Assembly: GCA_016699205.1 (NCBI GenBank)
Contig: CP064964.1
Location: 720,001 to 752,000 of the forward strand
Direction: 5' to 3'
Length of the DNA: 32,000 bases
Origin: Candidatus Saccharimonadota bacterium
GTDB taxonomy: Bacteria > Patescibacteriota > Patescibacteriia > 2-12-FULL-60-25
This document shows positions 2,507 through 30,461 of the stretch, piece after piece. Position numbers and translations under genes: made by a program. Below the pieces are notes generated by a model, which searched no databases, was not told the DNA's origin, and was given only the letters and a program-made list of their open reading frames with translations. Numbering within the stretch: the stretch's first letter is position 1; every line of letters starts with the position of its first letter.

Positions 2507-3319
2507 ATGATGGGGACTATGAACAGTAAGCAAAGAACAAAGAGTATCTGGTCGGTGCTTGCCCTCCTGCTCTCTGTTTTCTTGTTCTCCGTTCCTTCCG
2601 GCGTGCTTGCTATTGAATGCCCGCCACAAGCGTCTGACTTGAACTCAGCGCAAATTGCGGCTTTTGGCGATCTCACGCTGATGAGTTGTCAGAATTTATC
2701 AGCTGAAGTATCTGGGCCTGATCGGTCGCGGCGCTGTGTTTCCGGCGCTTGTCCCGGCGGAACTGATACGATGTGCTGCATGCCAGGCACGGGTGCCTCG
2801 CGCGGATTGGGCGGGGAGGAACCGTCAGCACCAGCTGGTGGAGGCGGTGGTGGGGGTGTGCTCCGACTTCAGCTGCCGGCGTGCGTCGCGGATGGAAATT
2901 GCGGATTGGATGACATTGTTGAGACGGGTGTGAACTTTGCCAACTTCTTGTTTGGTATTTCCGGCGCGATTTTTCTTGCGATCTTTGTTTACGCCGGATT
3001 CAAGTATATTTTCTTTGCTTCTCAATCGAGCGAGGTTTCGGCAGCCAAAGGCATGCTCGTGAATGCAACGATTGGTATTATCTTGATGTTTGGTGCAAGC
3101 GCGCTTGTGACAACCGTTTACAACGCATTCCGCGCCGGTGGTTCCGGTGGGGATGCCCGCTGTACCGCGTCGTTTCCCGCAAATTCTTGTCAGCCGCTTT
3201 CTGCTAACTGGGAAGATGTGACGGCTCGCAACGCGGAAATCCGTGACAGAAGCTGTCAGCCGGGATTGTGCGGGGATGATAATCGTTTGGTCTGTTGTCC
3301 GACGGAAGCTGCTCGCTAA
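2507..3319 (+). CDS. VirB2/TrbC-like (T4SS-pilin-like) protein 1, with Cys-rich modules on both sides of the pilin core
   Basis: 270 aa. N-terminal hydrophobic signal (IWSVLALLLSVFLFSVPSGVLA), a Cys-rich stretch (CPPQ...CVSGACPGGTDTMCCMPG) and a Gly run. Central two-helix core FLFGISGAIFLAIFVYAGFKYIFFASQSSEVSAAKGMLVNATIGIILMFGASALV. Second Cys-rich tail (CTASFPANSCQ...CQPGLCGDDNRLVCCP). Confidence 0.65.
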   Translation: MMGTMNSKQRTKSIWSVLALLLSVFLFSVPSGVLAIECPPQASDLNSAQIAAFGDLTLMSCQNLSAEVSGPDRSRRCVSGACPGGTDTMCCMPGTGASRGLGGEEPSAPAGGGGGGGVLRLQLPACVADGNCGLDDIVETGVNFANFLFGISGAIFLAIFVYAGFKYIFFASQSSEVSAAKGMLVNATIGIILMFGASALVTTVYNAFRAGGSGGDARCTASFPANSCQPLSANWEDVTARNAEIRDRSCQPGLCGDDNRLVCCPTEAAR

Positions 3320-3320
3320 T

Positions 3321-4166
3321 ATGACTCGATTACACTCTCTTTCCCAGCTTATCAAGATTCTATCGATGGCGATCGTATTATTACTTGTTTTTCCGACAAA
3401 TTCTTTTGCTGCAATTGGGGCCGCTTGCGATGTAAGCGGTGAATGTGGTGCGGGAGAAAATTGTGATAATGAAGCGGGTGGCTCGAGAACCTGTCGGCTG
3501 CCCATCGGAGCAGCTTGTACATCAAGTGCACAGTGTAGATTGGAAAGTCCTTGTACAGCAGGTACGTGTACACCCTCATCAGGTGCCCCTCCCTCGGCCC
3601 CTGTTCCAGCACCGTCCGCTGGAGGAAGTTGTCCATGCACATGTACGATTCAAACGGGTACCGGCCCGCAAAGTGTTTCTATTAGCGGAGGGATAACCGG
3701 CGTAGGTACTCCGACCGGTCCGGCGACGCGTGCGGAAGCGCAGACGGCTTGTCAGACAGCGTGTCAGGCACAGGCAGCAACGAGGACTGGAACGCTAACG
3801 ACCGCGGCGCTTGAGGGGTGTCCGGCCTCTTTGTTTGGAGCGGGCGGAGCCGGTACCGGTGCGTCAGGGACGGGAGACGGCTCAGGGAGTGGGGATGCCG
3901 GCTCCATTGCTCTGTATAATCCTCTGGACGCCGAGGTCGGCGTTGCGGAATTTATTAGCCGTGGTTTGCGCGGGGTTATTGGTTTTGTGGGTGCGCTCGC
4001 CTTGCTCATGTTTGTGTACGGCGGTGTGATGTGGATGACGGCGGGGGATAGCAAGCGTATCGATACCGCCAAGGAGATTTTGAAAAACTCGACCATTGGG
4101 CTTGTGCTGATCTTTTTCTCGTATAGCATCGTTTCCGTTGTCTTCAGTCTTTTGGGGAGCTCGTAA
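3321..4166 (+). CDS. VirB2/TrbC-like (T4SS-pilin-like) protein 2, with an N-terminal Cys-rich extension
   Basis: I chose ATG 3321, 2 nt after the upstream stop; the track ORF start 3243 lies inside gene 1. Signal peptide MTRLHSLSQLIKILSMAIVLLLVFPTNSFA. Cys-rich region (CDVSGECGAGENCDNE...CPCTCTIQ...ACQTACQAQ). C-terminal core VGALALLMFVYGGVMWMTAGDSKRIDTAKEILKNSTIGLVLIFFSYSIV. Confidence 0.7.
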   Translation: MTRLHSLSQLIKILSMAIVLLLVFPTNSFAAIGAACDVSGECGAGENCDNEAGGSRTCRLPIGAACTSSAQCRLESPCTAGTCTPSSGAPPSAPVPAPSAGGSCPCTCTIQTGTGPQSVSISGGITGVGTPTGPATRAEAQTACQTACQAQAATRTGTLTTAALEGCPASLFGAGGAGTGASGTGDGSGSGDAGSIALYNPLDAEVGVAEFISRGLRGVIGFVGALALLMFVYGGVMWMTAGDSKRIDTAKEILKNSTIGLVLIFFSYSIVSVVFSLLGSS

Positions 4167-4167
4167 T

Positions 4168-4872
4168 ATGACTATCGTATCGCGTAAGCCGCAACTTGCT
4201 AGTCTATGGATGGTCGGTGTATTTCTTTTTTCGTTTTTGGTATCTGCGATGCCGACGAGCGTATCCGCGCAGCCATTTTGCTGGTGTAAAATTGCAGATG
4301 GAACGTGTTCACAGCACGGAGCGCGTGTTGGCGAATCGCCGCGTCAGGTGACGCAGTGCGGTGATGCTCCTGCAGGAGCATCTGATACGGATCGACTTAC
4401 GTACTGTAATACGTATTGTTCGAGCCGCGGTTGGCGTGCCGTTCACTGTGAGACGGGGTATAATAATTATTATCAATCGGATAGCACTCCTGATGAGGCA
4501 AATCGCTGTACGCCTCGCGAGGCACCGGCTCCGGCCGATTCTGGGAGCGTAGAGACGCCCGGTATGGGCGATGGCGGAGAAGATCGCACAAGTCCCAGCG
4601 ACTTTGGTTTGCGTAATCCTATCGGTTCCACGGATTTGCGCGTGATTATTAGTCGGCTTATCCGCGCGGTCCTTGGTATTGTCGGCGCGCTTTTTCTTGT
4701 GATGTTTGTGTATGGCGGAGTGCTTTGGATGACGGCTGGGGAGAGTAAGCGGATTGATTCTGCCAAGAAAACATTGATCAATGCGGTCGTCGGAATGATC
4801 ATTGTCGCCTTTTCGTACTCGATGGTTTCTTTGGTGTTTAACCTCGCTGGACAGGTTGCGGGCGGCGCGTAA
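4168..4872 (+). CDS. VirB2/TrbC-like (T4SS-pilin-like) protein 3, with an N-terminal Cys-rich extension
   Basis: ATG 4168 lies 2 nt after the upstream stop. Signal peptide ...FLFSFLVSAMPTSVSAQ. Cys-rich region (FCWCKIADGTCSQ...YCNTYCSSRGWRAVHCE...RCTP). C-terminal core VGALFLVMFVYGGVLWMTAGESKRIDSAKKTLINAVVGMIIVAFSYSMV. Confidence 0.7.
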   Translation: MTIVSRKPQLASLWMVGVFLFSFLVSAMPTSVSAQPFCWCKIADGTCSQHGARVGESPRQVTQCGDAPAGASDTDRLTYCNTYCSSRGWRAVHCETGYNNYYQSDSTPDEANRCTPREAPAPADSGSVETPGMGDGGEDRTSPSDFGLRNPIGSTDLRVIISRLIRAVLGIVGALFLVMFVYGGVLWMTAGESKRIDSAKKTLINAVVGMIIVAFSYSMVSLVFNLAGQVAGGA

Positions 4873-4879
4873 GTCCTTG

Positions 4880-4888
4880 TGGTATACT
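4880..4888 (+). promoter_or_regulatory. Candidate extended -10 promoter element (TGgTATACT) upstream of the short pilin-like gene
   Basis: tgGTATACT at 4880-4888, just after the gene 3 stop. No convincing -35. Would give a leader of about 70 nt. Confidence 0.3.
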
Positions 4889-4961
4889 TCCCTCGTCGTT
4901 CCGCGCGTTAATTGCAGAACGAAGACATATCTTTGACTATGAGAAAGGAGGTGACATACGC

Positions 4962-5357
4962 ATGACTTTACGTATGAAAAAGCTTGTTGGTTTTGCCGCT
5001 ACGGCCGGTATTCTTGCCGCCACAGCGCTGCCAGCTGTCACCTTTGCTCAGGGGGGTTTGAATGCCAACGATCTTGGTGTTGGAGCCATCCAAAACGATA
5101 TTAAGCTCGGTTCCGGCGACGTTCGCCAGACTGCAGCTCGTATCATCAACGTTGCTCTCGGTTTCCTCGGTATCATTGCCGTGGTAATTGTGCTCGTCGG
5201 TGGTTTCAAATATATGATCTCGGGTGGTAACGAAGAGAAGACATCGGAAGCCAAGAACTTGATCGTGTCCGGTATTATCGGTCTCGCCATCATTCTCTCG
5301 GCTTGGGCAATCACGAGTTTCGTGATCGGCCAGCTTCTCACCGCAACCTCTGAATAA
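4962..5357 (+). CDS. VirB2/TrbC-like (T4SS-pilin-like) protein 4, short form; candidate major subunit
   Basis: 131 aa. Strong SD AAAGGAGGTG 8 nt upstream (alternative ATG at 4974). Signal peptide ...ATALPAVTFAQGG. Core LGFLGIIAVVIVLVGGFKYMISGGNEEKTSEAKNLIVSGIIGLAIILSAWAI. C-ending codon preference (CTC, ATC, GGT, AAG) resembles the ribosomal-protein genes in this window. Confidence 0.75.
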   Translation: MTLRMKKLVGFAATAGILAATALPAVTFAQGGLNANDLGVGAIQNDIKLGSGDVRQTAARIINVALGFLGIIAVVIVLVGGFKYMISGGNEEKTSEAKNLIVSGIIGLAIILSAWAITSFVIGQLLTATSE

Positions 5358-5363
5358 TCTTGC

Positions 5364-5380
5364 ACCGGCATAGCGCCGGT
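5364..5380 (+). promoter_or_regulatory. Intercistronic hairpin after pilin-like gene 4 (possible attenuator or mRNA stabiliser)
   Basis: accggc-atagc-gccggt, a 6-bp perfect stem with no T tract, between the stop at 5357 and ATG 5390. Confidence 0.3.
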
Positions 5381-5389
5381 ACTCACTAC

Positions 5390-5947
5390 ATGTCTCGTCA
5401 CTCATTCATTACCGCTTGTCTCACCGCATCACTCGTGTTGATGCCGGTTATGGCATCGGCGCAACTCACGGCGGATAACACCGGACTTTCCGGCGCGGCT
5501 GCCGGAACGGGCTTGTCTACTTCTTGTGAAGGGACGGAGTGTTTGCTCTCGATCATCGGGAACGTGATCAACCTCGTGCTCGGTTTCCTCGGTGTCGTTC
5601 TCTTGGTCATGCTGCTCTATGCCGGCTTTCTCTGGATGACTTCTGGAGGAGACACAAAGGGCGTGCAGGCGGCCAAGACCATGATTACCAATGCCGTTGC
5701 CGGCGTGGTCATCGTCGCCATTTCCTACGCTCTCACCGCTTTTGTTCTTGGCCAGTTGGCTACGATTACGGGCGATGCGGGAGGTGCAGGCAGTGAAGCA
5801 CCTGGTGCGGGAGGGAGAGGAGCGGCTTGTTCTGCTCCAGCCGACTGTCCCGAGGTTACATGTCCTGCTGGCGGCAGTTCTCCGGTCGGACCTCATGAGG
5901 GCAGGTGTGTTCTTGGTGAATGCAGTGCTTACGTCTGCTCGCCGTAA
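5390..5947 (+). CDS. VirB2/TrbC-like (T4SS-pilin-like) protein 5, with a C-terminal Cys-rich tail
   Basis: I preferred ATG 5390 (MSRHSFITACLTASLVLMPVMASAQ signal) over the track TTG at 5360. Core LGFLGVVLLVMLLYAGFLWMTSGGDTKGVQAAKTMITNAVAGVVIVAISYAL. Tail ACSAPADCPEVTCPAGG...GRCVLGECSAYVCSP. Confidence 0.7.
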   Translation: MSRHSFITACLTASLVLMPVMASAQLTADNTGLSGAAAGTGLSTSCEGTECLLSIIGNVINLVLGFLGVVLLVMLLYAGFLWMTSGGDTKGVQAAKTMITNAVAGVVIVAISYALTAFVLGQLATITGDAGGAGSEAPGAGGRGAACSAPADCPEVTCPAGGSSPVGPHEGRCVLGECSAYVCSP

Positions 5948-6009
5948 TGACCGGACGTGTATCGAGTATCGGTGCTGTGCCTTGTAAGACTTAATTCCCA
6001 GATTGATCT

Positions 6010-6423
6010 ATGAACTTGAAAAAGCTTTATTACGCCGCCGGAGCCGGTCTGAGCGTGATGGCGGGTTCCATCCCGTTTATCGCTCAGGCTCAACCCGGTC
6101 GCAACCCGTTTGATCCAAGTGGAACTGCGGCGCAAAATGTTGGTAAGATAGGTACTCAGATTGGACAAACAGGTGACCAGTCAACAAGATTGCCAATCAT
6201 TATTGGCAATATCATCAACGTTGTTCTTGGATTCATGGGCATCGTGCTCTTGTTCTATTTACTCTACGGCGGATTCCTTTGGATGACTTCCGGAGGTGAT
6301 TCCAAGGGTGTTGATGCAGCCAAGACGATGATTCGCAACGCTATTATCGGTCTTGTCATCATTGTTTCTTCCTACGCGATTTCCAGCTTTGTGCTTGCAC
6401 AGCTGTTGATCGTTACATCGTAA
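6010..6423 (+). CDS. VirB2/TrbC-like (T4SS-pilin-like) protein 6, short form
   Basis: 137 aa. Signal peptide ...GSIPFIAQAQ. Core LGFMGIVLLFYLLYGGFLWMTSGGDSKGVDAAKTMIRNAIIGLVIIVSSYAI, closely similar to gene 5. Confidence 0.75.
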   Translation: MNLKKLYYAAGAGLSVMAGSIPFIAQAQPGRNPFDPSGTAAQNVGKIGTQIGQTGDQSTRLPIIIGNIINVVLGFMGIVLLFYLLYGGFLWMTSGGDSKGVDAAKTMIRNAIIGLVIIVSSYAISSFVLAQLLIVTS

Positions 6424-6437
6424 TTTTGCTGGCCCCC

Positions 6438-6472
6438 AAACACATAGCCCGCTACTGCGGGTTTTGTGTTTT
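6438..6472 (+). terminator. Rho-independent terminator of the pilin-like array
   Basis: Nested hairpin aaacaca-tag-cccgc-tact-gcggg-ttt-tgtgttt followed by a T-rich tail. Confidence 0.7.
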
Positions 6473-6475
6473 CTT

Positions 6476-6666: not shown

Positions 6667-7440
6667 TCAGGGCGTTCCGGCCTGTCCGCAGTCGCCATTG
6701 GTGATCTGCCACTGCAGACCGCCAGCCATGTGGAATGGGTGAGTGCCGCGATATGCGGGAGCAGAGGCGAGCCGTCCACCTGCTGTGCGGTAGCAGAAGT
6801 AGGTGATCTCGTGACGGGGACGATCCGCGCCGTCGACGAGCGGGATGCTCATCGAAGTCGGAGACATGGGGCCCGCGCGCCGCGGGATCGCGGGCATCGC
6901 GCACATGCCGGACGTGTCGCTCACCATGAGGGGCGTTCCACCTGCAAAGGTGTGGACGACACGGCCATCGATCGCGATGGCGACATCGAAGATGGAGTTG
7001 TTCTGGACCAAGTAGTCCATGCCGTCCATCGTGTATGCTCCCCACGGCTCGGAGCCGGTGGAGAAGGCCATTGTGGAGGTCAGCATGCCCGAGGTGAGCA
7101 TGCCGGCACCGTCGACGCCGTCGCACATCTGGAGAACGCCAGGCATGCCGGTCGACGTCGTTCCGATGGGCGTCATGAGCGGGGCGCCCACGATGGGTGC
7201 GACGGGAGCGGATGCCACGACCGGAGCCGTGTCACCACCGCTGGTCTCGGAAGCGGGCTCGCGGCCGGCCATGAGGTCGGCGCGATCACGCTCGAGACGA
7301 GCGTTCTCCTCTTCCGCTTCCGTGGCACGTGCCTCGGCGCGGTCGAGACGCTCCATGATGGAGCGCATGTCGACGCTGCCGCCGCAGCCGATGAGGGTGA
7401 AGCAGGCGAGCGCGAACACGAACGAGAGGTGCTTGATCAT
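6667..7440 (-). CDS. Hypothetical lipoprotein with a short N-terminal coiled-coil (GC-rich cassette a)
   Basis: I chose ATG 7440 (MIKHLSFVFALACFTLIGCGG, lipobox LIGC). It is followed by RSIMERLDRAEARATEAEEENARLERDRADL, then a Met/Gly/Thr-rich region and a C-terminal domain with no family I recognise. The track ORF extends in frame to 7584 but lacks signal logic there. Confidence 0.7.
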   Translation of the reverse strand: MIKHLSFVFALACFTLIGCGGSVDMRSIMERLDRAEARATEAEEENARLERDRADLMAGREPASETSGGDTAPVVASAPVAPIVGAPLMTPIGTTSTGMPGVLQMCDGVDGAGMLTSGMLTSTMAFSTGSEPWGAYTMDGMDYLVQNNSIFDVAIAIDGRVVHTFAGGTPLMVSDTSGMCAMPAIPRRAGPMSPTSMSIPLVDGADRPRHEITYFCYRTAGGRLASAPAYRGTHPFHMAGGLQWQITNGDCGQAGTP

Positions 7441-7602
7441 CTGGGCCTCGTAGGGTTTTGGGTTGTTGTTTTGAGGAACGTTGGTCGTCTCAGGTTTGAG
7501 ACTTCCCTCCAAGTCATGAAGCTTGTTCATGATCATGTTCATGAATCGGAGGGAAGGAGCTCCAGGTGTAATCCCGGAGCTCACTTGCCAGAGTGATGTG
7601 TG

Positions 7603-14957: not shown

Positions 14958-15320
14958 ATGAATATGAAAGTAGTCGTCGATTTATTGGGGCTTAAGACCG
15001 AAAGGGACGTGCTTCTTAAGTTCGGAGAGGTTTTTGAGTTCGGAGGTCCTGACGGAAATATTCCGGCAAGAGGTAATGTGCATGGGATAGGATGGGGGTG
15101 CAATTGGGACGCGATGAATGATTCTCTATACTCACTTGAAGAAGGTGGTATTTGGGCAACGAGTAAGAAATTTAGTTTTCCATTGGAAATTGAGGTGACT
15201 AATTTTAAAGAATTTGAAGAGAATGATCCTAGGCGCTTTCAAACTCTTAAGGAAATCCTCGACGCTCATATCAATGAATATCAAAAGGAAGGAAAAGTCA
15301 TGTCAGTTACGTTTATTTAA
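14958..15320 (+). CDS. Barstar-like ribonuclease-inhibitor family protein (orphan; no barnase-like gene adjacent)
   Basis: 120 aa. The pattern VVDLLGLKTERDVLLKFGEVFEF...GWGCNWDAMNDSL...FPLEIEVTNFKEF aligns by eye with barstar (...[30 protein letters not shown]...YPLVLEWRQFEQ). Markedly A+T-rich (21/60 G+C at 15181-15240). Confidence 0.6.
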   Translation: MNMKVVVDLLGLKTERDVLLKFGEVFEFGGPDGNIPARGNVHGIGWGCNWDAMNDSLYSLEEGGIWATSKKFSFPLEIEVTNFKEFEENDPRRFQTLKEILDAHINEYQKEGKVMSVTFI

Positions 15321-15778: not shown

Positions 15779-16480
15779 ATGGCCTCACTTGTTTTGGTTC
15801 GTCATGGGGAGTCCCGTTGGAATCTTTCGAATCGTTTCACAGGCTGGATCGATGTTCCGTTGAGTGAAAACGGTATTCGCGAGGCTCGCGCTTGTGCCAA
15901 GCATTGCGATGCATATGATTTTTCTGCGGCTTACACGTCCAAGCTTGAACGTGCTCACCTTACATTGTTTCTTTTGCTTGCGAATCAGAATCGCACAGGG
16001 ATTGTTCAGCACGAGCATGATGCGAAGTATTATCGCTGGACCAAGCATTCCAATGGGTATGGTACGAGCGAAATCCCGGTCTTTGAGAGTACGTCTTTGA
16101 ATGAACGTTATTATGGAGCGTTGCAGGGACTCGACAAGCAGCAGGCGGTAGAGCGATATGGCGCGGCAAAAGTTCTCGCGTGGCGCCGCGGGTATCATGC
16201 ACGTCCGCCGGGAGGGGGAGAAAGTCTTGAAGACACGTTAAATCGCGCACAGCCGTTTTTGGTGAAGCAGATTCTTCCTCGCGTGCGTAAAGGAGAGGAT
16301 GTGCTTGTGGTCGGGCATGGGAATACGCTTCGAACGGCCATCAAATATCTGGAGGGAATTAGTGACGATGACATCGCTTTTCTTGATCTGCCTAAGGCAC
16401 ATCCGCTTGTTTATACGTTTGTGCGCGGAAAGTGGAAGCGTACTTCCGGGGAATTTACGTTTCATCGACCGTTGCGATAG
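15779..16480 (+). CDS. gpmA: 2,3-bisphosphoglycerate-dependent phosphoglycerate mutase
   Basis: Starting from ATG 15779: MASLVLVRHGESRWNLSNRFTGWIDVPLSENG (RHGE histidine-phosphatase signature), then ...ERYYGALQG..., ...VVGHGNTLR. The track start at 15671 would run across the upstream terminator. Confidence 0.88.
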   Translation: MASLVLVRHGESRWNLSNRFTGWIDVPLSENGIREARACAKHCDAYDFSAAYTSKLERAHLTLFLLLANQNRTGIVQHEHDAKYYRWTKHSNGYGTSEIPVFESTSLNERYYGALQGLDKQQAVERYGAAKVLAWRRGYHARPPGGGESLEDTLNRAQPFLVKQILPRVRKGEDVLVVGHGNTLRTAIKYLEGISDDDIAFLDLPKAHPLVYTFVRGKWKRTSGEFTFHRPLR

Positions 16481-16497
16481 GGAGTGAAAGGGGTATC

Positions 16498-17605
16498 ATG
16501 ACTGAATCTATGAATGCTGTTTGTGAAGTTCCAAAACAACGTTCGTTTTGGCTGCGTTTCTGGCAGGCGCTGCTCGCCGTGGCGTTGGTTTGGTTTGTTT
16601 GGAAATGGATGATTTCGCCGTTTCTATTTTTGCTTCCGAGCGCGTCCGTTGGGCCGTCGTATGCCGCTATGTTTATTCTCGGTTTGGTGGCGAGTGTTTC
16701 CACGTGCCTCGCATCGACCGGTGCATTCCTCATCGCGTTTAGCGGAAAGGATTCGATGAGCGTGGCTCTTACTCATACCGGACGATTGGTTGCGTTTGTC
16801 GTTGGAGGTGCGTTACTCGGCGGTATCGGCCAGGGGATTGCGCTGTCTGTGGGCGCATACGGTATTGTCGGTATCATTCTTGGTTTCGTGCTTGCGGGGG
16901 TTGCTTTGTATCTCCTCGATCTTTTGCCGCGCAGTCTTGTGTCTCTTCCGATGGCCTTTGGCCGCTTTGCGCATGGCGTTGCGGGCAAGCACGGTAAGGC
17001 GATTCCGCCATTGGTTGGAGCCGTGACATTTTTGCTTCCTTGCGGATTCACGCAGGCCGCACAAACTATGGCTTTGGCTTCCGGTTCCGCTCAAGTCGGA
17101 GCGACGATGATGGGCGTTTTCGCTCTCGGTACGTTTCCCGTTTTGGTCGGGTTGAGTTTGTTTGGATCGATGGCATCGATGAAGAGTCGGGCGATTCAGC
17201 TTGCGACCGGAGGTATGCTCGCCTTGTTTGCGGTGGCGCAAATTGACGGCGGGCTAACCGTGCTTGGATCGCCAGTGACGCTAGAAGGTGCGATCGTTTC
17301 CGTGGGCGGTGCATTGACGGTTGCGCCGGTACAAGCGGAAGAGCAAATCGTGAGTATGCGGGTTGCGTATGGGACCTTTAGTCCGAGCCGTTTTGTTTTG
17401 AAACGGGGAGTACCCGTACGTTGGGATATTGAAGGTGTCGACGTCAGTGGCTGTGCGGAGTTCGATTGTCGCGCCGACCATCGGAGTAAATCAGAGCCTT
17501 GTTCTTGGGATGAATACGGTTCGATTTACGCCGTCTCGTACTGGTACAATTCCGTTTTCCTGCGCGATGGGTATGATTCGCGGTTCATTCCAAGTTGTCG
17601 ATTAA
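16498..17605 (+). CDS. DsbD_2/TauE-like polytopic membrane protein fused to a C-terminal cupredoxin-like domain; one +1 frame break
   Basis: ATG 16498 (MTESMNAV...), about 7 hydrophobic segments. After ...VPVRWDIEGVDVSGCA (about 17457) the conserved end is in the +1 frame: SSIVAPTIGVNQSLVLGMNTVRFTPSRTGTIPFSCAMGMIRGSFQVVD, stop 17603-17605. It lies immediately upstream of copA. Confidence 0.6.
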
Positions 17606-17609
17606 TGCT

Positions 17610-19747
17610 ATGAAAACTCAATTAAAGATTCTTGGGATGCATTGCGCTTCATGCGCGCTTACGACCGAGCAGGCTTTGAAGAAGGTTCCGGGAGTCATCG
17701 AGGCAAGGGTTAACTACGCGAGTGAGCGTGCCTCTATTGAGCATGGCGAGCACGTCCACTTGGAAACTCTCGTGAATGCCGTGCGGGATAATGGATATGA
17801 TGCGGTTGATGAGCATGCAAAACATGGAGAGAGCCATCTGACGCATGGCGGATACATCGATATGCGCGGGCTTGTGATCGCCGGAGTCCTTGCCTTGCCT
17901 TTGATCGCCAGTATGTTTGTGATGTTACCGACGCCTGTCCTTGCGATCAGTGCTTGGATTTTAGTTCTCGTGCTTGGTTGGAAATTTCATGTTGGAACTT
18001 GGAATGATGTTCGGCATTTCCGAGCGGGAATGGATGCCTTAGTGACGGTCGGAACGGGTTCCGCGCTTTGTGGAGTACGTATGCGATGCTGATTGGTTCT
18101 GCCGATGTGTATTTTGAGGTTGCTGGCATTGTCGTATTCTTCTTACTGCTTGGGAAATGGTTGGAGGCGCGTCAGCGTATGCAGGCAGGTACCGCGATCG
18201 AGGTTTTGCTTTCTTTGCATGCCAAGGAGGCGCATTGTTTGAAGCCGGATGGAACAACGGAGGATGTAGACGCGGCTTTGCTCCGGCCGGATGATCGATG
18301 TCTTGTGAAAAGCGGTGAACGCATTCCGATGGATGGCGTGATCGAAAAGGGCCATTCATCCATCGACGAGTCTATGCTGACGGGGGAGTCGATTCCTGTT
18401 GAAAAGCATGCCGGCGACTTGGTGTACGGTGCGACGGTGAACGGTACGGGATCGTTTACGATGAAGGTGACGGTTAAACCGGGTGAGTCGGCGTTGGATG
18501 CGATTGTGGCAACGGTTCAGCATGCGCTTGCGACTAAGTCGCCTGTCGAAAAGCTTGTCGACAAGATCTCCGGTGTTTTTGTTCCGATCGTTATTGTCTT
18601 GGCGATCGTGACGTTTGGTGTTTGGTTATGGGTTATGGGTACTGGGTTGGGTGAAGCGATTAAGCATGCCGTAACCGTTCTTATCGTTGCCTGTCCTTGT
18701 GCGCTCGGATTGGCGACACCGGCTGCCATTATGGTCGGGACGGGTGCGGGGGCTAAGCGCGGGATTCTTGTGAAGGAAGGATCGGCGCTTGAGGCGGCGC
18801 GGCGTGTGAATCTTGTGATGTTTGATAAGACGGGGACGCTTACGGAAGGGAAGCCGACGGTTACGGACATTATTCCTGCGGAAGGTGTATCGGAGAAGGA
18901 GTTGCTTTCCCTTGCCGCCGGTCTCGAGCTTGCCTCGGAACATCCGCTTGCGAGTGCCGTGCTTGCGGTGGCGACGGAGCGCGGTGTATCGGTCGCGCAC
19001 ATCGAGGAGTTTAAGGCGATGACAGGTAAGGGCGTACAAGCGATGCATGAGGGTCACGAAGTTCGTTTGGGAACGGAAGCATTTTTGAAGGAGGTGGGAG
19101 CAATATTGTCCTCAACGGATGCAAATCAGCTCACGGTTCTCCGTCATGAAGCCAAGACGGTGATTCTTGTCGCAAAGGATGGGAAATATCTTGGAGCGAT
19201 TGCGGCGCGTGACAGATTAAAGAGCGATGCGGCGGGAGCGATTAAGAAGCTTCGTGAACATGGCATTGAAACGGGGCTCATCACGGGCGATCATCGCATG
19301 ACGGCGGATGCTGTCGCCAAGGAACTCGGTATCGATATGGTTTTGTCTGAAATTTCACCGTCGGGAAAGTCGGAGGAGGTGAAGCGGCTTCAGGAGGCTG
19401 GAAAAAAAGTCGCGTTTGTTGGCGATGGGATGAATGATGCGCCGGCACTTGCGCAGGCCGACCTTGGAATCGCCATGGGAACGGGAACGGATGTGGCGAT
19501 TGCGACCGGACAGATCGTACTCATGAATGGTTCGCCGTCCAAAGCGGCTGACGCGCTCTGGCTTGCACGTAGAACCTTCCAGACGATACGCCAGAATTTG
19601 TTTTGGGCGTTTGCGTATAACGTTGTGTTGATTCCGCTTGCGATGACTGGCGTTGTGAATCCGATTTTTGCCGGACTTGCCATGGCGTTCTCGAGTGTTA
19701 GTGTACTGGCCAATAGCTTACGCATTTCGCGAAGTCTACACGCTTAA
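17610..19747 (+). CDS. copA: Copper-translocating P1B-type ATPase; one frame break (missing base at TTT 18067-18069)
   Basis: HMA domain LGMHCASCA; TGES (MLTGESIPV); CPC ([12 protein letters not shown]); DKTGT ([10 protein letters not shown]); [17 protein letters not shown]. The ORFs 17595-18092 and 18068-19747 join as ...GTGSAL(L)WSTYAMLIG... Confidence 0.9.
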
Positions 19748-19752
19748 GTTCT

Positions 19753-20193
19753 ATGATGAATAACATGCGCCCATATCTTTATCCCGTCGCATTTCTACAA
19801 GCGGTTGTGGCCATGACGGGGAGCTTGTACTTCAGCGAGGTGATGCACTTGGTGCCGTGCGTCTTGTGTTGGTACCAGCGCATCACGATGTATCCGCTGG
19901 TCGCGATCCTGTTTGTTGGAATGTATTTTAAGGATTCGAAAGTGTATCGATACGTTTTGCCGCTCGCGATTATCGGTCTTTTAATTGCGACTTACCACGT
20001 TGTTTTGTACTACGCCGTGAATTGGGGGATTCGTCCGGATTGGGTGGGGCCGTGTGTTGCGGGCGTTTCTTGTACGACGCGGTATATTGAGTGGCTTGGG
20101 TTTATCACGATTCCACTTTTGTCTTGGGTAGCGCACTTGGTTATTGCGGTTTTGATGGGGTTGGCTTGGAAATCGGAGAAGCGGGTGGGTTGA
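19753..20193 (+). CDS. dsbB: Disulfide bond formation protein B (DsbB/BdbC family)
   Basis: 146 aa with four hydrophobic helices. CVLCWYQRITMYP motif plus a second Cys pair (CVAGVSC). Confidence 0.85.
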   Translation: MMNNMRPYLYPVAFLQAVVAMTGSLYFSEVMHLVPCVLCWYQRITMYPLVAILFVGMYFKDSKVYRYVLPLAIIGLLIATYHVVLYYAVNWGIRPDWVGPCVAGVSCTTRYIEWLGFITIPLLSWVAHLVIAVLMGLAWKSEKRVG

Positions 20194-26086: not shown

Positions 26087-28420
26087 ATGCCGCGTTTCCT
26101 CACCGCTCTCGTTGCGGTCTGTATCCTCGTTCTTGGGTCGACGACAGCGTCGGCGCAGGATCAGCCCATGCCGGGCCGGGGAGAGATCCTCGAGCTACGG
26201 CGTGATGACCCGCGTAACACGGACGGCTACCGAAGCTTCATCTTCGGCAGCTGGACGTCTGGCATGGGAGGTCTCCGCGACATCCTCGACCGCGTGAATG
26301 CGGATCTCGAGGGTGACTCGCGCGTGACCTGGGAGCAGCTCGACGCTGCCAACCCCTGCATCATCATCTATCGCCGCAACGGCCACCGCTTTGGCCACAA
26401 CGGAAGCTGCAGTACCAACTCGACGGAAGAGCGCGTCACGTACGCCTCGTACTGCGAGGGGGATCCTACCTGTGCCCGCTGGCCGATGGCTGGCCGTGTG
26501 TACCGCATCCCGGCTCGTTCTCGGCTCACGCCGGGAGAACGCGCCGAGGAGATGGTACGGACGCTCGACGAGACGACGGTGACCGAGACGGTCCCGGCGC
26601 CTGCCGAGATGGGCGGTTGGCTTACCGAGCTCTCTGACCTCATGGGTGAAGAGCAAGGTCCGACCTATGATCAGGTGCGTAGTGTCCTCGGAGCTGTTGG
26701 TCGTACGCTTACGCGTGCGGAGACGGCATCAGCTGGAACGGGTGCTCACGAGGCATCTGAACCTGCTGCCACGGCGGACACGCACGCGGATATGACGTTC
26801 ACCGATGAGAGTCTCCCGGGAACGTCTGAAGATGAAGCTGCTCTGCGCCCGACGAGCGCAGAAGACGGTACACTTACCTCGTCAACATCCGATGGAGCTG
26901 CCACCTCCATTCTGATGAACCCTCAACTCCTGTGGCTCATCATCGCGATCATGTCCGTCGCGTTGATTCTCCTTCTTCTTAAGGACAAAATCCGAGCATG
27001 GTACAGGCCCACGCTTTCGGATCACGATCATGATTTGCCTGAAACGGGACCTGTCCCCCCGGCTCTCACCAAAGAGCAAGAGCAGGACATCAGGCTGGCC
27101 ACCGGCCTCAAGCGCCGTTGGAAGCAATACTTCCGAGATCTCAAGCGCAACGACCAGTTGACGCTCGAGACTCTCTTCCTCTTCTTTGATACGGCTGCGA
27201 CCAATCACGCGTTGGTCGACGATCGTGAGAAGAAGATCAAGGAGCTGGAAGAGCTCAAGGAGAAGGTTGATCGGCTCAGCGTCGCTCAGACGGCATTGCC
27301 GATCGAGGATCCCCGGATCCCCGAGCTCGAGCGTCAGCTGCGTGAAGCGACTGACGCCAAGGATCGCGCCGAGTCGGCCAAGAGCACCGCGGAAGCCATG
27401 GCGCTTCGTCTTGGTCTCGAGCATCCCACGGCCCTTCGTAAGAAGGACGAGGAACATGCGGTCACCAAGGCCGCGCTCGAGTCGCTCCAGAACGAGTTCA
27501 AGGCTTTCAAGGCCAATGGGCTCAAGCTGCTCGAGTTGTTTTACCAGGATGGCGCTGCCAACCTGGAACTCGCTCTCGACCATGCGTCGCGTAGCGGCGA
27601 GATCTCCACTCCGTCCTTCGTGACGATCATCGAGCGCGTCTCGTCTGCACGAGATCTCTTCAAGGGGATGGTTCGCGGGGTCCTGAACGACCTCATGATC
27701 CTCTTCGAGTCGGATCTCGCGATGGTTCCGGCACCGGCGGCGAATGCTCCTTTCGCGGGAGCGTCTGCTCAGACCCCTGGGTTTGGTGGTAGCACTGATT
27801 CCTGGGAACGCTCGCTCGATGAGAGCGGGTCGGATCTGGCAACCGATCCGACGCAGCATGGTGTACGGGTGCCGGGATTTGGCGGATATGCTCCCGCTCA
27901 TGAACCGGCGTCGGTACCTCCCGAAGAGCCGGCTGTGATTCCGCCCGTGGAGTCGCTTTCACTCAAGGGGGAGGCGACCAATCCCGGGATTCCGGCTCCT
28001 GATAACGTCACGTTCCGCATGAGCCAGCACGCGCCTCCGCCGCCCGAGCGACCGAATGGCAAGAAGCGCAACCGTGATCGCAAGACCACGGACAGCTTCG
28101 AGCGTCAACCGGTCGCCAAGGCGCTCGAGGAGCGCCGAGACGAGAAGACGGCAGTGATCGATCCGAAGGATCTCGAGCACAAGAAGCTCGAGGCCCGTAC
28201 CGGGAAGACCATCTCGCCGGGCATGACTGCCGCCGCTCGCGACGACAGTCCGATCCCCGGATCGCTCGTTCCGCCGCCTCCGCCGATCGTCACGCTCGAC
28301 GCCAGCAATGGTGAAGAGCCGGACGTATCGCGGCCTGCATCACTGAGTATCTTCGATGACCTTACTGGGTCGGGTGGAGAGACGGGTGTCACGGTCAAGC
28401 GCGCGATCGGCAAGGACTGA
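26087..28420 (+). CDS. Large bitopic protein: signal peptide, Cys-containing LysM-like ectodomain, TM, long coiled-coil, Pro-rich disordered tail (cassette d, paralog 1)
   Basis: 777 aa. SD AAGGGAG. Signal MPRFLTALVAVCILVLGSTTASAQ. Ectodomain ...LRDILDRVNADLEGDSRVTWEQLDAANPCIIIY...MAGRVYRIPA. TM LLWLIIAIMSVALILLLL. Heptad-rich 27.0-27.7 kb, then a P/E/S-rich tail. A TTGACA lies at 25972-25977 without a convincing -10. Confidence 0.7.
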   Translation: MPRFLTALVAVCILVLGSTTASAQDQPMPGRGEILELRRDDPRNTDGYRSFIFGSWTSGMGGLRDILDRVNADLEGDSRVTWEQLDAANPCIIIYRRNGHRFGHNGSCSTNSTEERVTYASYCEGDPTCARWPMAGRVYRIPARSRLTPGERAEEMVRTLDETTVTETVPAPAEMGGWLTELSDLMGEEQGPTYDQVRSVLGAVGRTLTRAETASAGTGAHEASEPAATADTHADMTFTDESLPGTSEDEAALRPTSAEDGTLTSSTSDGAATSILMNPQLLWLIIAIMSVALILLLLKDKIRAWYRPTLSDHDHDLPETGPVPPALTKEQEQDIRLATGLKRRWKQYFRDLKRNDQLTLETLFLFFDTAATNHALVDDREKKIKELEELKEKVDRLSVAQTALPIEDPRIPELERQLREATDAKDRAESAKSTAEAMALRLGLEHPTALRKKDEEHAVTKAALESLQNEFKAFKANGLKLLELFYQDGAANLELALDHASRSGEISTPSFVTIIERVSSARDLFKGMVRGVLNDLMILFESDLAMVPAPAANAPFAGASAQTPGFGGSTDSWERSLDESGSDLATDPTQHGVRVPGFGGYAPAHEPASVPPEEPAVIPPVESLSLKGEATNPGIPAPDNVTFRMSQHAPPPPERPNGKKRNRDRKTTDSFERQPVAKALEERRDEKTAVIDPKDLEHKKLEARTGKTISPGMTAAARDDSPIPGSLVPPPPPIVTLDASNGEEPDVSRPASLSIFDDLTGSGGETGVTVKRAIGKD

Positions 28421-28431
28421 TCCCACAACTG

Positions 28432-28478
28432 AAGGCCCCGTATCGCATTTCTGCGGTACGGGGCCTTGACTTTTTCTT
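28432..28478 (+). terminator. Rho-independent terminator between the two cassette d genes
   Basis: aaggccccgta, a 14-nt loop, then tacggggcctt followed by gaCTTTTTCTTT. The 3' arm overlaps a TTGACT box. Confidence 0.7.
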
Positions 28479-28529
28479 TAAATATTGTCCAAATGAGGCT
28501 GGGTCTTTCATACCCAGAGGGAGTCATTC

Positions 28530-30461
28530 ATGAACGGATACCGGCTGACGCTCGGCTGCATGATTGCGGTCGTTTGCGCGACCGCCTTCATGACCTTTTC
28601 CACGACCGCCGAAGCCCAGGTGCGCGTCATCGAACGCGATACCGATGGCTTCACTGTTCGCATCGAGTCTGGTGCCCGTTTGCGGCATCTTGCGCACGCG
28701 ATCGGCATGGAGCCGGACATGGATCAGATCGCCCGGAGCAATCCGGGCCACATCATCTATGTCTGCCGCGACAATATGCCTGGTGAGCGGCCCTACATGA
28801 GCCGTGATCCGGAATCGTGGAATGCTTGCCAGCATTTTTCGCGGGAACGGTGGCTGTTGGCCGGTGTCACGTATTACGTGCCCCTGCGGTTCGAGTCGGC
28901 GCCTGTTGCCTCGGATGCTCCGCCTGCCGAATCGCTTTGGCGGGAGGAGGGGCTGCGTTCACACAACCGTCTGCTCGAGCGTCGCATCACTGAACTCGAG
29001 ACGGATCTCGAGACGGCGCATAATGCTTTGATCGAAGCAGATGACCGGGCCGACGAAGCTGCAGCGTCTACGGCGTTGCTCCGCGACAGCAATGCCCGCC
29101 TCGAGAGCGACATGACGGGAATGGGCTGGCTCGCCGCCTTGTTCTCCCTGCTGTTTCTGCTCATGGGGTTCGGAGCGCTGTATGTGCTCTGGCGAACGCG
29201 TCTCATGTTGCGGCGTATCATGGATTCTGCACGGCGCGAACGTGTCGCTTGGAGCCAGTATGCCGACAAGATGCGCCGCAATCGCGACGAGATCATTGGA
29301 ACGCTAACCAGCAAGGTTAGCAGCCTGAACAGTCAGATCGAGATGCTTAAGCGCAACATCTCGGAGACTTCGAACGAACTAGCGCAAACGCAAACGCAGC
29401 AAGGACGGCTGCGGCGGCGTACCAATCTTCTTCTCGTCCAATTGGCCAAGTACCGGAAGTTGCTTCGCCAATGCTATTCAGCCATTCAACACTTCCAGCG
29501 GCGTCTGTCAGAGGAGACAGCACACCGTGAACGCCTTCCAACACTCCTCAAGTCAGTGGATGATGCGCGTCTCCAACTGATCTACGCAAATAATGCGCGC
29601 GCCCGCGTCGACATGGTTCGTCGATGGCTCATGTATGTCTACTCACGACGACGTACGATGGCTCCGACCATGCGCAAGATCACGGTGCTTGCGTACTTGG
29701 GTGTCATTGCCCAGTATCGCAAGCAGCAAAGGGAGTTCGAGCAAAAGGCTCGCGAGTTGGAGCCTGCCAAGCTTGAAGCGATCGAGACGATCTACAAGCT
29801 GACAGGTATTCGCGCCGATCACCTCGATCCGGAAAGCCGATTGAAGCGCTCCATGGAGGCGGCGGATAAAAACGCCGAGCTGCTCGACTCGCAGACGCAA
29901 GCTCTCAACGAGCTCATTCAGATCCAGATCCGCCTGCAAGGCGAGTTTGATGCCCGTGAAAAGGGGATCGAGTCGCGTGAAGAGCAGCTTGGAAAAGCGG
30001 AAGCTGAATACGTCGAGCGTCTTCACAAGCAAGGCCTACGCGAACGCGAGCATGCGGCACAGGTCGATGCTTGGAACAAGGAGCTCGAGCTCAAGAAGGA
30101 GATCGACGCTTGGTCGGGCGCTGCTCTCAAGGCAGAGACCACCGGCAAGCTCTCGGATGTCGAGAGGCGCATGAGCGAGATGGAAGGCCGCATGAACGGG
30201 TATGAGCGTCGTGCGATTTCCGCTGAGAAGGATCTCGACGAAACCAACGATTTCCTCGAAGTGGCCCGCAAGGAGTTCAAGGCGGCCAAGGAATTGATCG
30301 AAGGGATCAAGAAGGGTCCCAATTTCCTGGAAGCCAGAACGGCGCAGATGGCCGAGTACATTTCCCAGCTGGAGGAGAAGCTCGGGATCGAGCGTAAGTC
30401 CATCTGGGCTGGCTTGCCCGACTTGGCCTACGGCTCGGTTCCGCCCAAGGCAAAGGCCTAA
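28530..30461 (+). CDS. Large bitopic protein: signal peptide, LysM-like ectodomain, coiled-coil, TM, very long coiled-coil (cassette d, paralog 2)
   Basis: 643 aa. Signal MNGYRLTLGCMIAVVCATAFMTFSTTAEAQ. Ectodomain FTVRIESGARLRHLAHAIGMEPDMDQIARSNPGHIIYVC...LLAGVTYYVPL. TM WLAALFSLLFLLMGFGALYVLW. The remaining ~420 aa are heptad-rich (E/K/R/L/Q). Confidence 0.7.
   Translation: MNGYRLTLGCMIAVVCATAFMTFSTTAEAQVRVIERDTDGFTVRIESGARLRHLAHAIGMEPDMDQIARSNPGHIIYVCRDNMPGERPYMSRDPESWNACQHFSRERWLLAGVTYYVPLRFESAPVASDAPPAESLWREEGLRSHNRLLERRITELETDLETAHNALIEADDRADEAAASTALLRDSNARLESDMTGMGWLAALFSLLFLLMGFGALYVLWRTRLMLRRIMDSARRERVAWSQYADKMRRNRDEIIGTLTSKVSSLNSQIEMLKRNISETSNELAQTQTQQGRLRRRTNLLLVQLAKYRKLLRQCYSAIQHFQRRLSEETAHRERLPTLLKSVDDARLQLIYANNARARVDMVRRWLMYVYSRRRTMAPTMRKITVLAYLGVIAQYRKQQREFEQKARELEPAKLEAIETIYKLTGIRADHLDPESRLKRSMEAADKNAELLDSQTQALNELIQIQIRLQGEFDAREKGIESREEQLGKAEAEYVERLHKQGLREREHAAQVDAWNKELELKKEIDAWSGAALKAETTGKLSDVERRMSEMEGRMNGYERRAISAEKDLDETNDFLEVARKEFKAAKELIEGIKKGPNFLEARTAQMAEYISQLEEKLGIERKSIWAGLPDLAYGSVPPKAKA

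Follow-up and report, generated by a model that had tools for sequence, protein, structure and literature searches.

A conserved tandem array of six T4SS-pilin-family genes with cysteine-rich outer modules in a Patescibacteria genome

Does a row of six adjacent genes that share one pilin-like core encode the subunits of a surface filament, and are the six equivalent? The question is raised by six + strand genes, here called g1 to g6, at positions 2507-6423 of the window, by which we mean the whole 32,000-nucleotide stretch analyzed (bases 720001-752000 of a single-contig, 1.08-Mb genome, GCA_016699205.1, which is 97.9% complete). The array spans 722.5-726.4 kb of the genome, and the genes of the window find their best matches in Candidatus Uhrbacteria and other Patescibacteria. 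The Patescibacteria account for a large share of bacterial diversity, and their cells live attached to those of a host. As judged from sequence comparisons, the six genes are ancient, non-interchangeable positional paralogues in a fixed order, and the short, Cys-free g4 is the likely bulk subunit with expression signals of its own. The interpretation which we favour, with moderate confidence, is that the locus is the Uhrbacteria-lineage version of the VirB2-like arrays of Pfam family PF18895 (T4SS_pilin, where T4SS stands for type IV secretion system) known from Patescibacteria, and that it encodes a filament or stalk consisting mainly of g4.

Related loci (L001, L002 and so on, 79 in total) were fetched around g4 orthologues and searched with a hidden Markov model (HMM) built from the six cores. 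In nearly all complete loci there are six to eight core genes, on a single strand and in identical order: Cys-rich decorated genes at positions 1-3, the short Cys-free g4 at position 4, and then two or three short genes. The 138 cores of 23 loci were placed in a tree, in which they cluster by position and not by genome, with 11 label changes as against 89 when shuffled. Position 4 is monophyletic with 100% support in the Shimodaira-Hasegawa-like approximate likelihood ratio test (SH-aLRT), 22 of the 23 members of position 1 fall in one clade (99%), and the superclades {p1-p3} and {p4-p6} are supported at 97%. Together, the fixed order and the grouping of cores by position argue for old paralogues which cannot stand in for one another, and the five partners of g4 would have taken on their fixed roles before the species of this lineage separated. 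Recent tandem duplication and homogenised copies were also considered and are ruled out by the core tree.

Gene 4 (4962-5357, + strand) encodes 131 residues. The earlier note, which was made from the sequence of the window alone, had put it forward as the candidate major subunit, and it behaves as one in its conservation, its dN, its codon adaptation index (CAI), its conserved promoter-like element and Shine-Dalgarno sequence (SD), and its monophyly. Among the 120 clusters listed out of 1000 matches, identity to g4 is 75-100%, and in the relatives of the locus it ranges from 60 to 99%. In comparison with the closest relative, L001, g4 has a dN of 0.007 and a dS of 0.47, the neighbouring genes for GalU and for a solute-binding protein (SBP) have dS values of 1.6-1.8, and g2 and g3 have dN values of 0.25-0.34. 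Based on a reference set of 15 translation-apparatus genes (14 ribosomal protein genes and that for EF-G), the CAI of g4 is 0.682, which is the 95th percentile of 910 genome open reading frames (ORFs), while the other five array genes range from 0.43 to 0.58 (13th-75th percentiles). The highly-expressed codon style and the strongest SD of the array, both ascribed to g4 in the earlier note, were thus found again.

The SD, GAAAGGAGGTGA at 4943-4954 (+ strand), is nearly invariant in 12 relatives. An extended -10-like element, TGGTATACT, is situated ahead of the gene at 4880-4888 (+ strand), and in the alignment of 12 sequences TG-n-TATACT or TATCCT is aligned in 11 of them, with a variable flanking spacer. 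We infer that this element is a g4 promoter. Directly 3' of the g4 stop a 6-bp stem-loop without a T-run was identified (5364-5380, + strand; minimum free energy -10.7 kcal/mol), and about 18 of 45 relatives have a stem-loop of unrelated sequence at this position; the structure may act in differential expression. Between the promoter-like element and the SD there is also a stem, CGTTCCGC ... GCAGAACG (4889-4926), which has been retained, with some differences in either arm, in L001, L002, L004 and L009 and may serve as a stabilising or regulatory hairpin of the 5' untranslated region. Behind g6 a terminator-like hairpin with a T-rich tail (6446-6473, + strand) is suggested by its position, and the number of terminator-like sites in the region does not exceed that in shuffled sequences.

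The remaining five genes are on the same strand and differ in what is attached to the core. Gene 1 (2507-3319, 270 aa) comprises a leader, an N-terminal 6-Cys module (residues 37-93), a Cys pair (C126/C132), the pilin hairpin (residues ~134-208) and a C-terminal 6-Cys module (residues 208-270). In g2 (3321-4166, 281 aa) the leader is followed by a distal double unit with eight Cys (residues 31-88), a second Cys-containing region, a Gly-rich linker and the hairpin (residues ~207-279), and in g3 (4168-4872, 234 aa) by an N-terminal domain with eight Cys and the hairpin (residues ~154-228). Gene 5 (5390-5947) encodes 185 aa from its ATG, with a leader, a Cys pair ahead of helix 1, the hairpin and a C-terminal 6-Cys tail; a TTG at 5360 would give 195 aa, and the orthologues begin at the ATG. 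Gene 6 (6010-6423, 137 aa) is again short and Cys-free. The earlier note had placed the Cys-rich extensions correctly: at the N-terminus of g2 and g3, on either side of the core of g1 and at the C-terminus of g5. The ORF coordinates also agree with the reported spacing of g1-g3, since the gaps g1/g2 and g2/g3 are exactly 1 nt each.

Upstream of the array lies an SBP_bac_1 solute-binding lipoprotein gene (1101-2501, + strand; Pfam SBP_bac_1, 93.7 bits), the 3' end of which is 5 nt ahead of g1. An SBP homologue precedes the array in 57 of the 62 related loci with enough upstream sequence, and the order galU-SBP-array is conserved in L001, L002 and L044. The SBP gene is probably co-transcribed with g1-g3.

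The view of six same-strand genes with a common core holds, the core being about 75 residues long: a hydrophobic helix, a short GG..K..AK loop and a second hydrophobic helix. In the alignment the cores of the other members are 22-29% identical to that of g1. A match to the T4SS-pilin model had been expected, and all six proteins match PF18895, with 33.4, 36.9, 44.1, 42.7, 25.2 and 29.4 bits for g1 to g6 in the protein search (gathering score 26.6 bits); g5, at 25.2 bits as a protein, reached 26.9 bits in the genome scan. The E-values of the six, 1.8e-5 to 2.3e-11, are far beyond chance. A relationship to TrbC/VirB2 (PF04956) had been proposed as well, and here the outcome was mixed: weak cross-matches were obtained for g1 (22.0 bits, E 1.9e-4) and g2 (13.3 bits), every score was under the Pfam threshold of 27.9 bits, and g3-g6 had no match to this profile. 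At E<0.01, PF04956 was matched by 14 of 109 short relatives and by six of 11 g1 orthologues, the best relative having an E-value of 2.8e-6. With NCBIfam NF045849 (the Mbov_0395 family, pilin-like proteins of mycoplasma integrative conjugative elements, ICEs) g4 scored 42.8 bits against a cut-off of 40, whereas g1, g2, g3, g5 and g6 were under it at 16-32 bits; all six had E<0.01, and a genome scan with this model agreed with the protein-level scores. Judged from these profiles, the sequence link to bona fide pilins appears weak but not absent.

All six proteins begin with a hydrophobic leader, read from the sequence and its hydropathy segments, which ends at an AxA/AQ-type site. The numbers of Cys after the leader are 14, 14, 8, 0, 8 and 0 for g1-g6 and are always even. 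In the AlphaFold2 (AF2) model of g4 the hairpin is formed by helices H52-86 and H91-130 with a predicted local distance difference test score (pLDDT) of about 90. Conserved modules with even numbers of Cys flank the hairpin, which argues that both termini are outside the cytoplasm and that the hairpin crosses the membrane twice. The topology should therefore be of the VirB2 type, with both ends out.

The Cys-rich modules were described in the earlier note as swappable, and this is supported for the membrane-distal ends, which are replaced between close relatives (g1-g3 and g5). In the C-terminal module of g1 the six Cys are invariant in 30 orthologues that are on average 25% identical. When 1.84 billion representatives were searched with a profile of this tail, 87 clusters matched, almost always at the very C-terminal end, and 72 of the 87 also contain PF18895. 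An HMM built from the C modules matches the N module of g1 (domain E 1.5e-3), and AF2 gives both modules the same H-E-H-E order of elements, with low confidence (mean pLDDT of g1, 61). On the profile match and the common predicted element order, g1 is read as carrying the same 6-Cys knot on each side of its hairpin. Position 1 in relatives typically consists of an N-terminal module and a C-tail of ~60 aa with six Cys. In L001, L002, L009 and L078 the g2 orthologue lacks the distal 8-Cys unit of g2, and its remainder aligns well. Within the genome, the unit type C-x5-C-x5-C-x7-9-SR-x-C is confined to three proteins (g2 and two other pilin-core proteins); it is also seen in the g3 orthologue of L009, which has an extra Cys-rich N-terminal insertion of ~70 aa. 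The C-tail of g5 likewise differs among close relatives. The dN/dS ratio (omega) is 0.15-0.21 for g2 and g3 and 0.04-0.05 for neighbouring genes; no whole gene has a ratio above 1, and positive selection on the modules is without support. In Pfam, g2 had insignificant matches to Dickkopf_N (E 0.064) and to a defensin-like family (E 0.099). Small disulfide-knotted modules which are exchanged among close relatives are the most likely host-recognition surfaces.

Larger ectodomains were encountered at position 1 of other loci. The genes of L013 (2314-5064), L043 (2307-5216) and L074 (1696-4653) encode 906-953 aa with 58-62 N-terminal Cys and retain the hairpin and the C-terminal 6-Cys knot. One database protein with this knot has beta/gamma-crystallin domains (PF00030, E 5e-49) and another matches peptidase inhibitor I36; foreign ectodomains have therefore been recruited onto the scaffold.

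Enzymes for extracytoplasmic disulfide formation are predicted to be encoded by the genome. A DsbB-family gene is located at 19753-20193 (+ strand; Pfam DsbB, 46.8 bits), and a gene for a DsbD_2 membrane protein at 16432-17613 belongs to the same same-strand run. Membrane-anchored DsbA-like genes (genome 125696-126367 and 560459-561202) directly precede two other Cys-rich pilin-core genes, a pairing which is absent from the six-gene array. The run at 16432-20193 consists of DsbD_2, a heavy-metal-associated ORF with a P-type ATPase (17595-19747) and DsbB; it links copper handling with disulfide formation 10-14 kb downstream of the array.

Profile searches confirmed that the window is without a VirB4, VirB6 or VirD4 match, and assembly genes, which it had been suggested should be sought elsewhere in the complete genome, were located there as VirB4-like and coupling-protein (T4CP)-like ATPases, so that the earlier reading withstands this check. 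The VirB4-like ORF (genome 107963-109861) scored 96.9 bits with P-loop_TraG and 350 bits with conju_CD1110 (cut-off 325); with the mycoplasma ICE VirB4 model it reached 271 bits, under the cut-off of 590. A 234-aa ORF ahead of it matches N-terminal VirB4 and TrsD, and upstream a polytopic membrane protein of 970 aa without a family match is, by position and topology, a VirB6-like candidate. The two T4CP-like ATPases are at genome 251398-253551 and 390583-393153. VirB4 was detected with the P-loop_TraG, AAA_10 and NCBIfam models only; the genome search with PF03135 (CagE_TrbE_VirB) and PF04610 (TrbL) gave no match, nor did that for a relaxase of PF03432 or PF08751.

The PF18895 hairpin is itself widespread. 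It was found in 120 of 121 sampled Patescibacteria genomes at two to 15 matches each, and 11 times in the present genome. Outside the six-gene array, five other PF18895 proteins of this genome carry additional domains: an SLT transglycosylase, a C-terminal domain without a family, a DUF459/GDSL hydrolase with Cys-rich repeats, and Big_5 and Big_7 Ig-like domains, beside which lies a Cys-rich ORF of 1852 aa. By its domain combinations the hairpin is read as a scaffold which this genome uses for exported domains in general, and this bears on whether any such protein forms a filament.

How the array might work as a pilus can be outlined as follows. Genes 1-3 would share a transcript with the solute-binding lipoprotein gene that precedes them, and the translation of the three would be coupled; g4, perhaps with g5 and g6, would receive extra transcription from its own promoter. 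Export by Sec and disulfide formation would precede assembly. A VirB4-driven T4SS would then pull the hairpins from the membrane and build a surface filament or stalk mostly of g4, in which the other five subunits would be non-redundant, low-abundance partners comparable to minor pilins. Polymerisation into one filament, with the modules at its tip, is what we infer, and the disulfide-knotted modules would face outward and contact the host cell surface. The locus thereby turns what were "divergent pilin copies" into a testable model which names g4 as the likely bulk subunit.

Several observations weigh against a pilus. The TrbC cross-matches are below threshold, and other membrane families cross-match at similar rates. 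A profile of the family built from 109 sequences found no chain at E<=10 among all PDB sequences, and hence no solved pilin. Foldseek searches of the PDB with the g4 and g1 models gave best E-values of 0.95 and 1.1, to generic helical hairpins with no pilin among them; a significant match is lacking because a helical hairpin carries little fold information, and the fold search speaks neither for nor against a VirB2 fold. The array is ~610 kb from virB4 (or, should the contig be circular, ~470 kb in the opposite direction) and adjoins the SBP gene rather than secretion genes, while two other pilin-core genes are ~12 kb from virB4. Position-1 proteins reach 950 aa in some relatives and the hairpin also carries enzymes; it is difficult to see how members of this size or such cargo could be part of every filament subunit. 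Finally, a T4SS pilus has been seen in no Patescibacterium (PMC12857230).

The same facts feed the main rival, according to which the hairpin is no more than a two-helix membrane anchor for surface display and the six proteins remain membrane-bound and may form a hetero-oligomeric patch there. We regard this as rather unlikely, if a serious competitor. Its strongest argument is the enzyme and Ig-like cargo (SLT transglycosylase, GDSL/DUF459 hydrolase, Big_5/Big_7) of the five other hairpin proteins, and decorations of up to 800 aa in relatives, the distance of the array from virB4 and the missing observation of a pilus (PMC12857230) agree with it. A cargo-less anchor is nevertheless hard to explain, and g4 and g6 are without cargo, g4 being the most conserved and most codon-adapted member of the array. 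The family is moreover linked to virB4 in more than 1000 assemblies (PMC12102498), and g4 is above the cut-off of NF045849, a conjugation-associated pilin-like family. A bolder reading, which we consider improbable, would make the array an obligate hetero-oligomer that serves a monoderm cell as a surface organelle, in which a bulk VirB2-like subunit and five fixed-role partners are co-expressed and work with the SBP lipoprotein; it would be a conduit for host contact and nutrient harvesting with host specificity set by the exchangeable knots, and not a conjugation pilus.

Two further explanations are less probable again. Interchangeable pilin variants, serving antigenic or host-range variation, have been suggested for VirB2 amplifications of the Bartonella/Anaplasma type and were raised for Patescibacteria in PMC12102498. 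Such variants would fit the low identity between copies (22-29%) and the fast outer modules (the omega values of g2 and g3 against those of the neighbours), yet the cores group by position in 23 genomes with no sign of recent duplication or homogenisation, nearly every relative retains all positions in the same order, and architectures specific to one position are conserved, for example the C-terminal 6-Cys knot at position 1; we hold this to be very unlikely. Least probable of all is that the six are inner components of the T4SS channel (VirB3/PrgI-like) and not extracellular. All six do match NF045849 of the Mbov_0395 family, and a T4SS review calls ICE CDS13 and CDS15 VirB3-like, the identity of Mbov_0395 with one of these being assumed. 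The cleavable-looking leaders and the disulfide modules at both termini, however, place the ends outside the cell, and six copies with five more elsewhere exceed any known requirement for VirB3; PrgI/VirB3 homologues were also scored apart from VirB2-like proteins in PMC12102498. The pilus-subunit interpretation, with g4 as its bulk component, thus remains the one we prefer.

Other features of the window and genome are recorded briefly. The segment 6570-11450 has a G+C content of 0.60-0.67, as against 0.47-0.56 around it, and contains long ORFs on both strands, none with a Pfam match. A horizontally acquired high-GC island (6.6-11.4 kb) was considered and ruled out, the segment being colinear in L001, L009 and L007. 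Within it, a minus-strand ORF of 305 aa (6667-7584) has a lipoprotein-like leader and a coiled-coil segment and is 66% identical over 158 aa to L009. Two large + strand genes at 26087-30461 encode proteins of 777 and 643 aa without a Pfam match. Both have a leader and a membrane segment, resemble each other in their N-terminal domain and end in a long coiled-coil or low-complexity tail. A gene of the Barstar family (barnase inhibitor) is located at 14958-15320 with no obvious barnase-like partner beside it. Elsewhere in the genome EF-Tu appears in the ORF call as two overlapping ORFs of 267 and 152 aa (897774-898962), which could reflect a tuf frameshift or an assembly error.

Among known systems, the TrbC/VirB2 pilins of diderm T4SSs (PF04956; F, RP4 and Ti-type) resemble the array proteins in having a leader, two hydrophobic helices, a short loop and both termini outside. 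They differ in that the present cell has a monoderm envelope, the termini carry fused ectodomains, profile scores are sub-threshold and solved pilins are not matched in sequence. Unlike in those systems, we know of no VirB5-type tip protein for the array. The Mbov_0395 family of mycoplasma ICEs is likewise monoderm, and is approached by the g4 score above the NF045849 cut-off and by the VirB4 model match; here, in contrast, the genes are chromosomal with galU-SBP-array synteny across species, are not beside virB4, form six diverged copies and are without a PF03432/PF08751 relaxase. Type IV pili and type II secretion pseudopili offer a functional analogy only: they combine, as the array would, an abundant conserved subunit with non-redundant, low-abundance paralogues which are encoded together and have their variable parts outward, whereas their fold and assembly machinery are unrelated.

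The closest counterparts are the VirB2-like arrays of Patescibacteria. In a search of 3,035 genomes of this group with PF18895 and PF04956, Quinonero-Coronel et al. (2025; PMC12102498) found, in 383 assemblies, 441 arrays of two to 11 genes whose identity averaged 25%. In 1135 of 1948 assemblies a pilin gene was located close to virB4, a proximity which is therefore typical and not defining. In Southlakia epibionticum ML1 a predicted pilin series in the T4SS cluster is essential (Wang et al. 2023; PMC10633639); the number of pilins is six, and a pilus has been called an "intriguing possibility" in a 2025 review (PMC12857230). The T4SS and its pilin array are thus essential in the sole Patescibacteria species tested. 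The present array shares with these the Pfam family, the tandem same-strand arrangement, the six copies of S. epibionticum, an inter-copy identity of ~25% and a genome with a relaxase-poor, monoderm-type T4SS. It differs in lying far from virB4 and joined to an SBP gene, and in the disulfide-rich outer modules of four of its six members; fusions of this kind to the pilin core are not mentioned in PMC12102498, PMC10633639 or PMC12857230. An array of this kind has therefore already been published, and the fixed six-position orthology, the signature of g4, the turnover of the modules and the linkage to the SBP gene go beyond the published accounts that were found.

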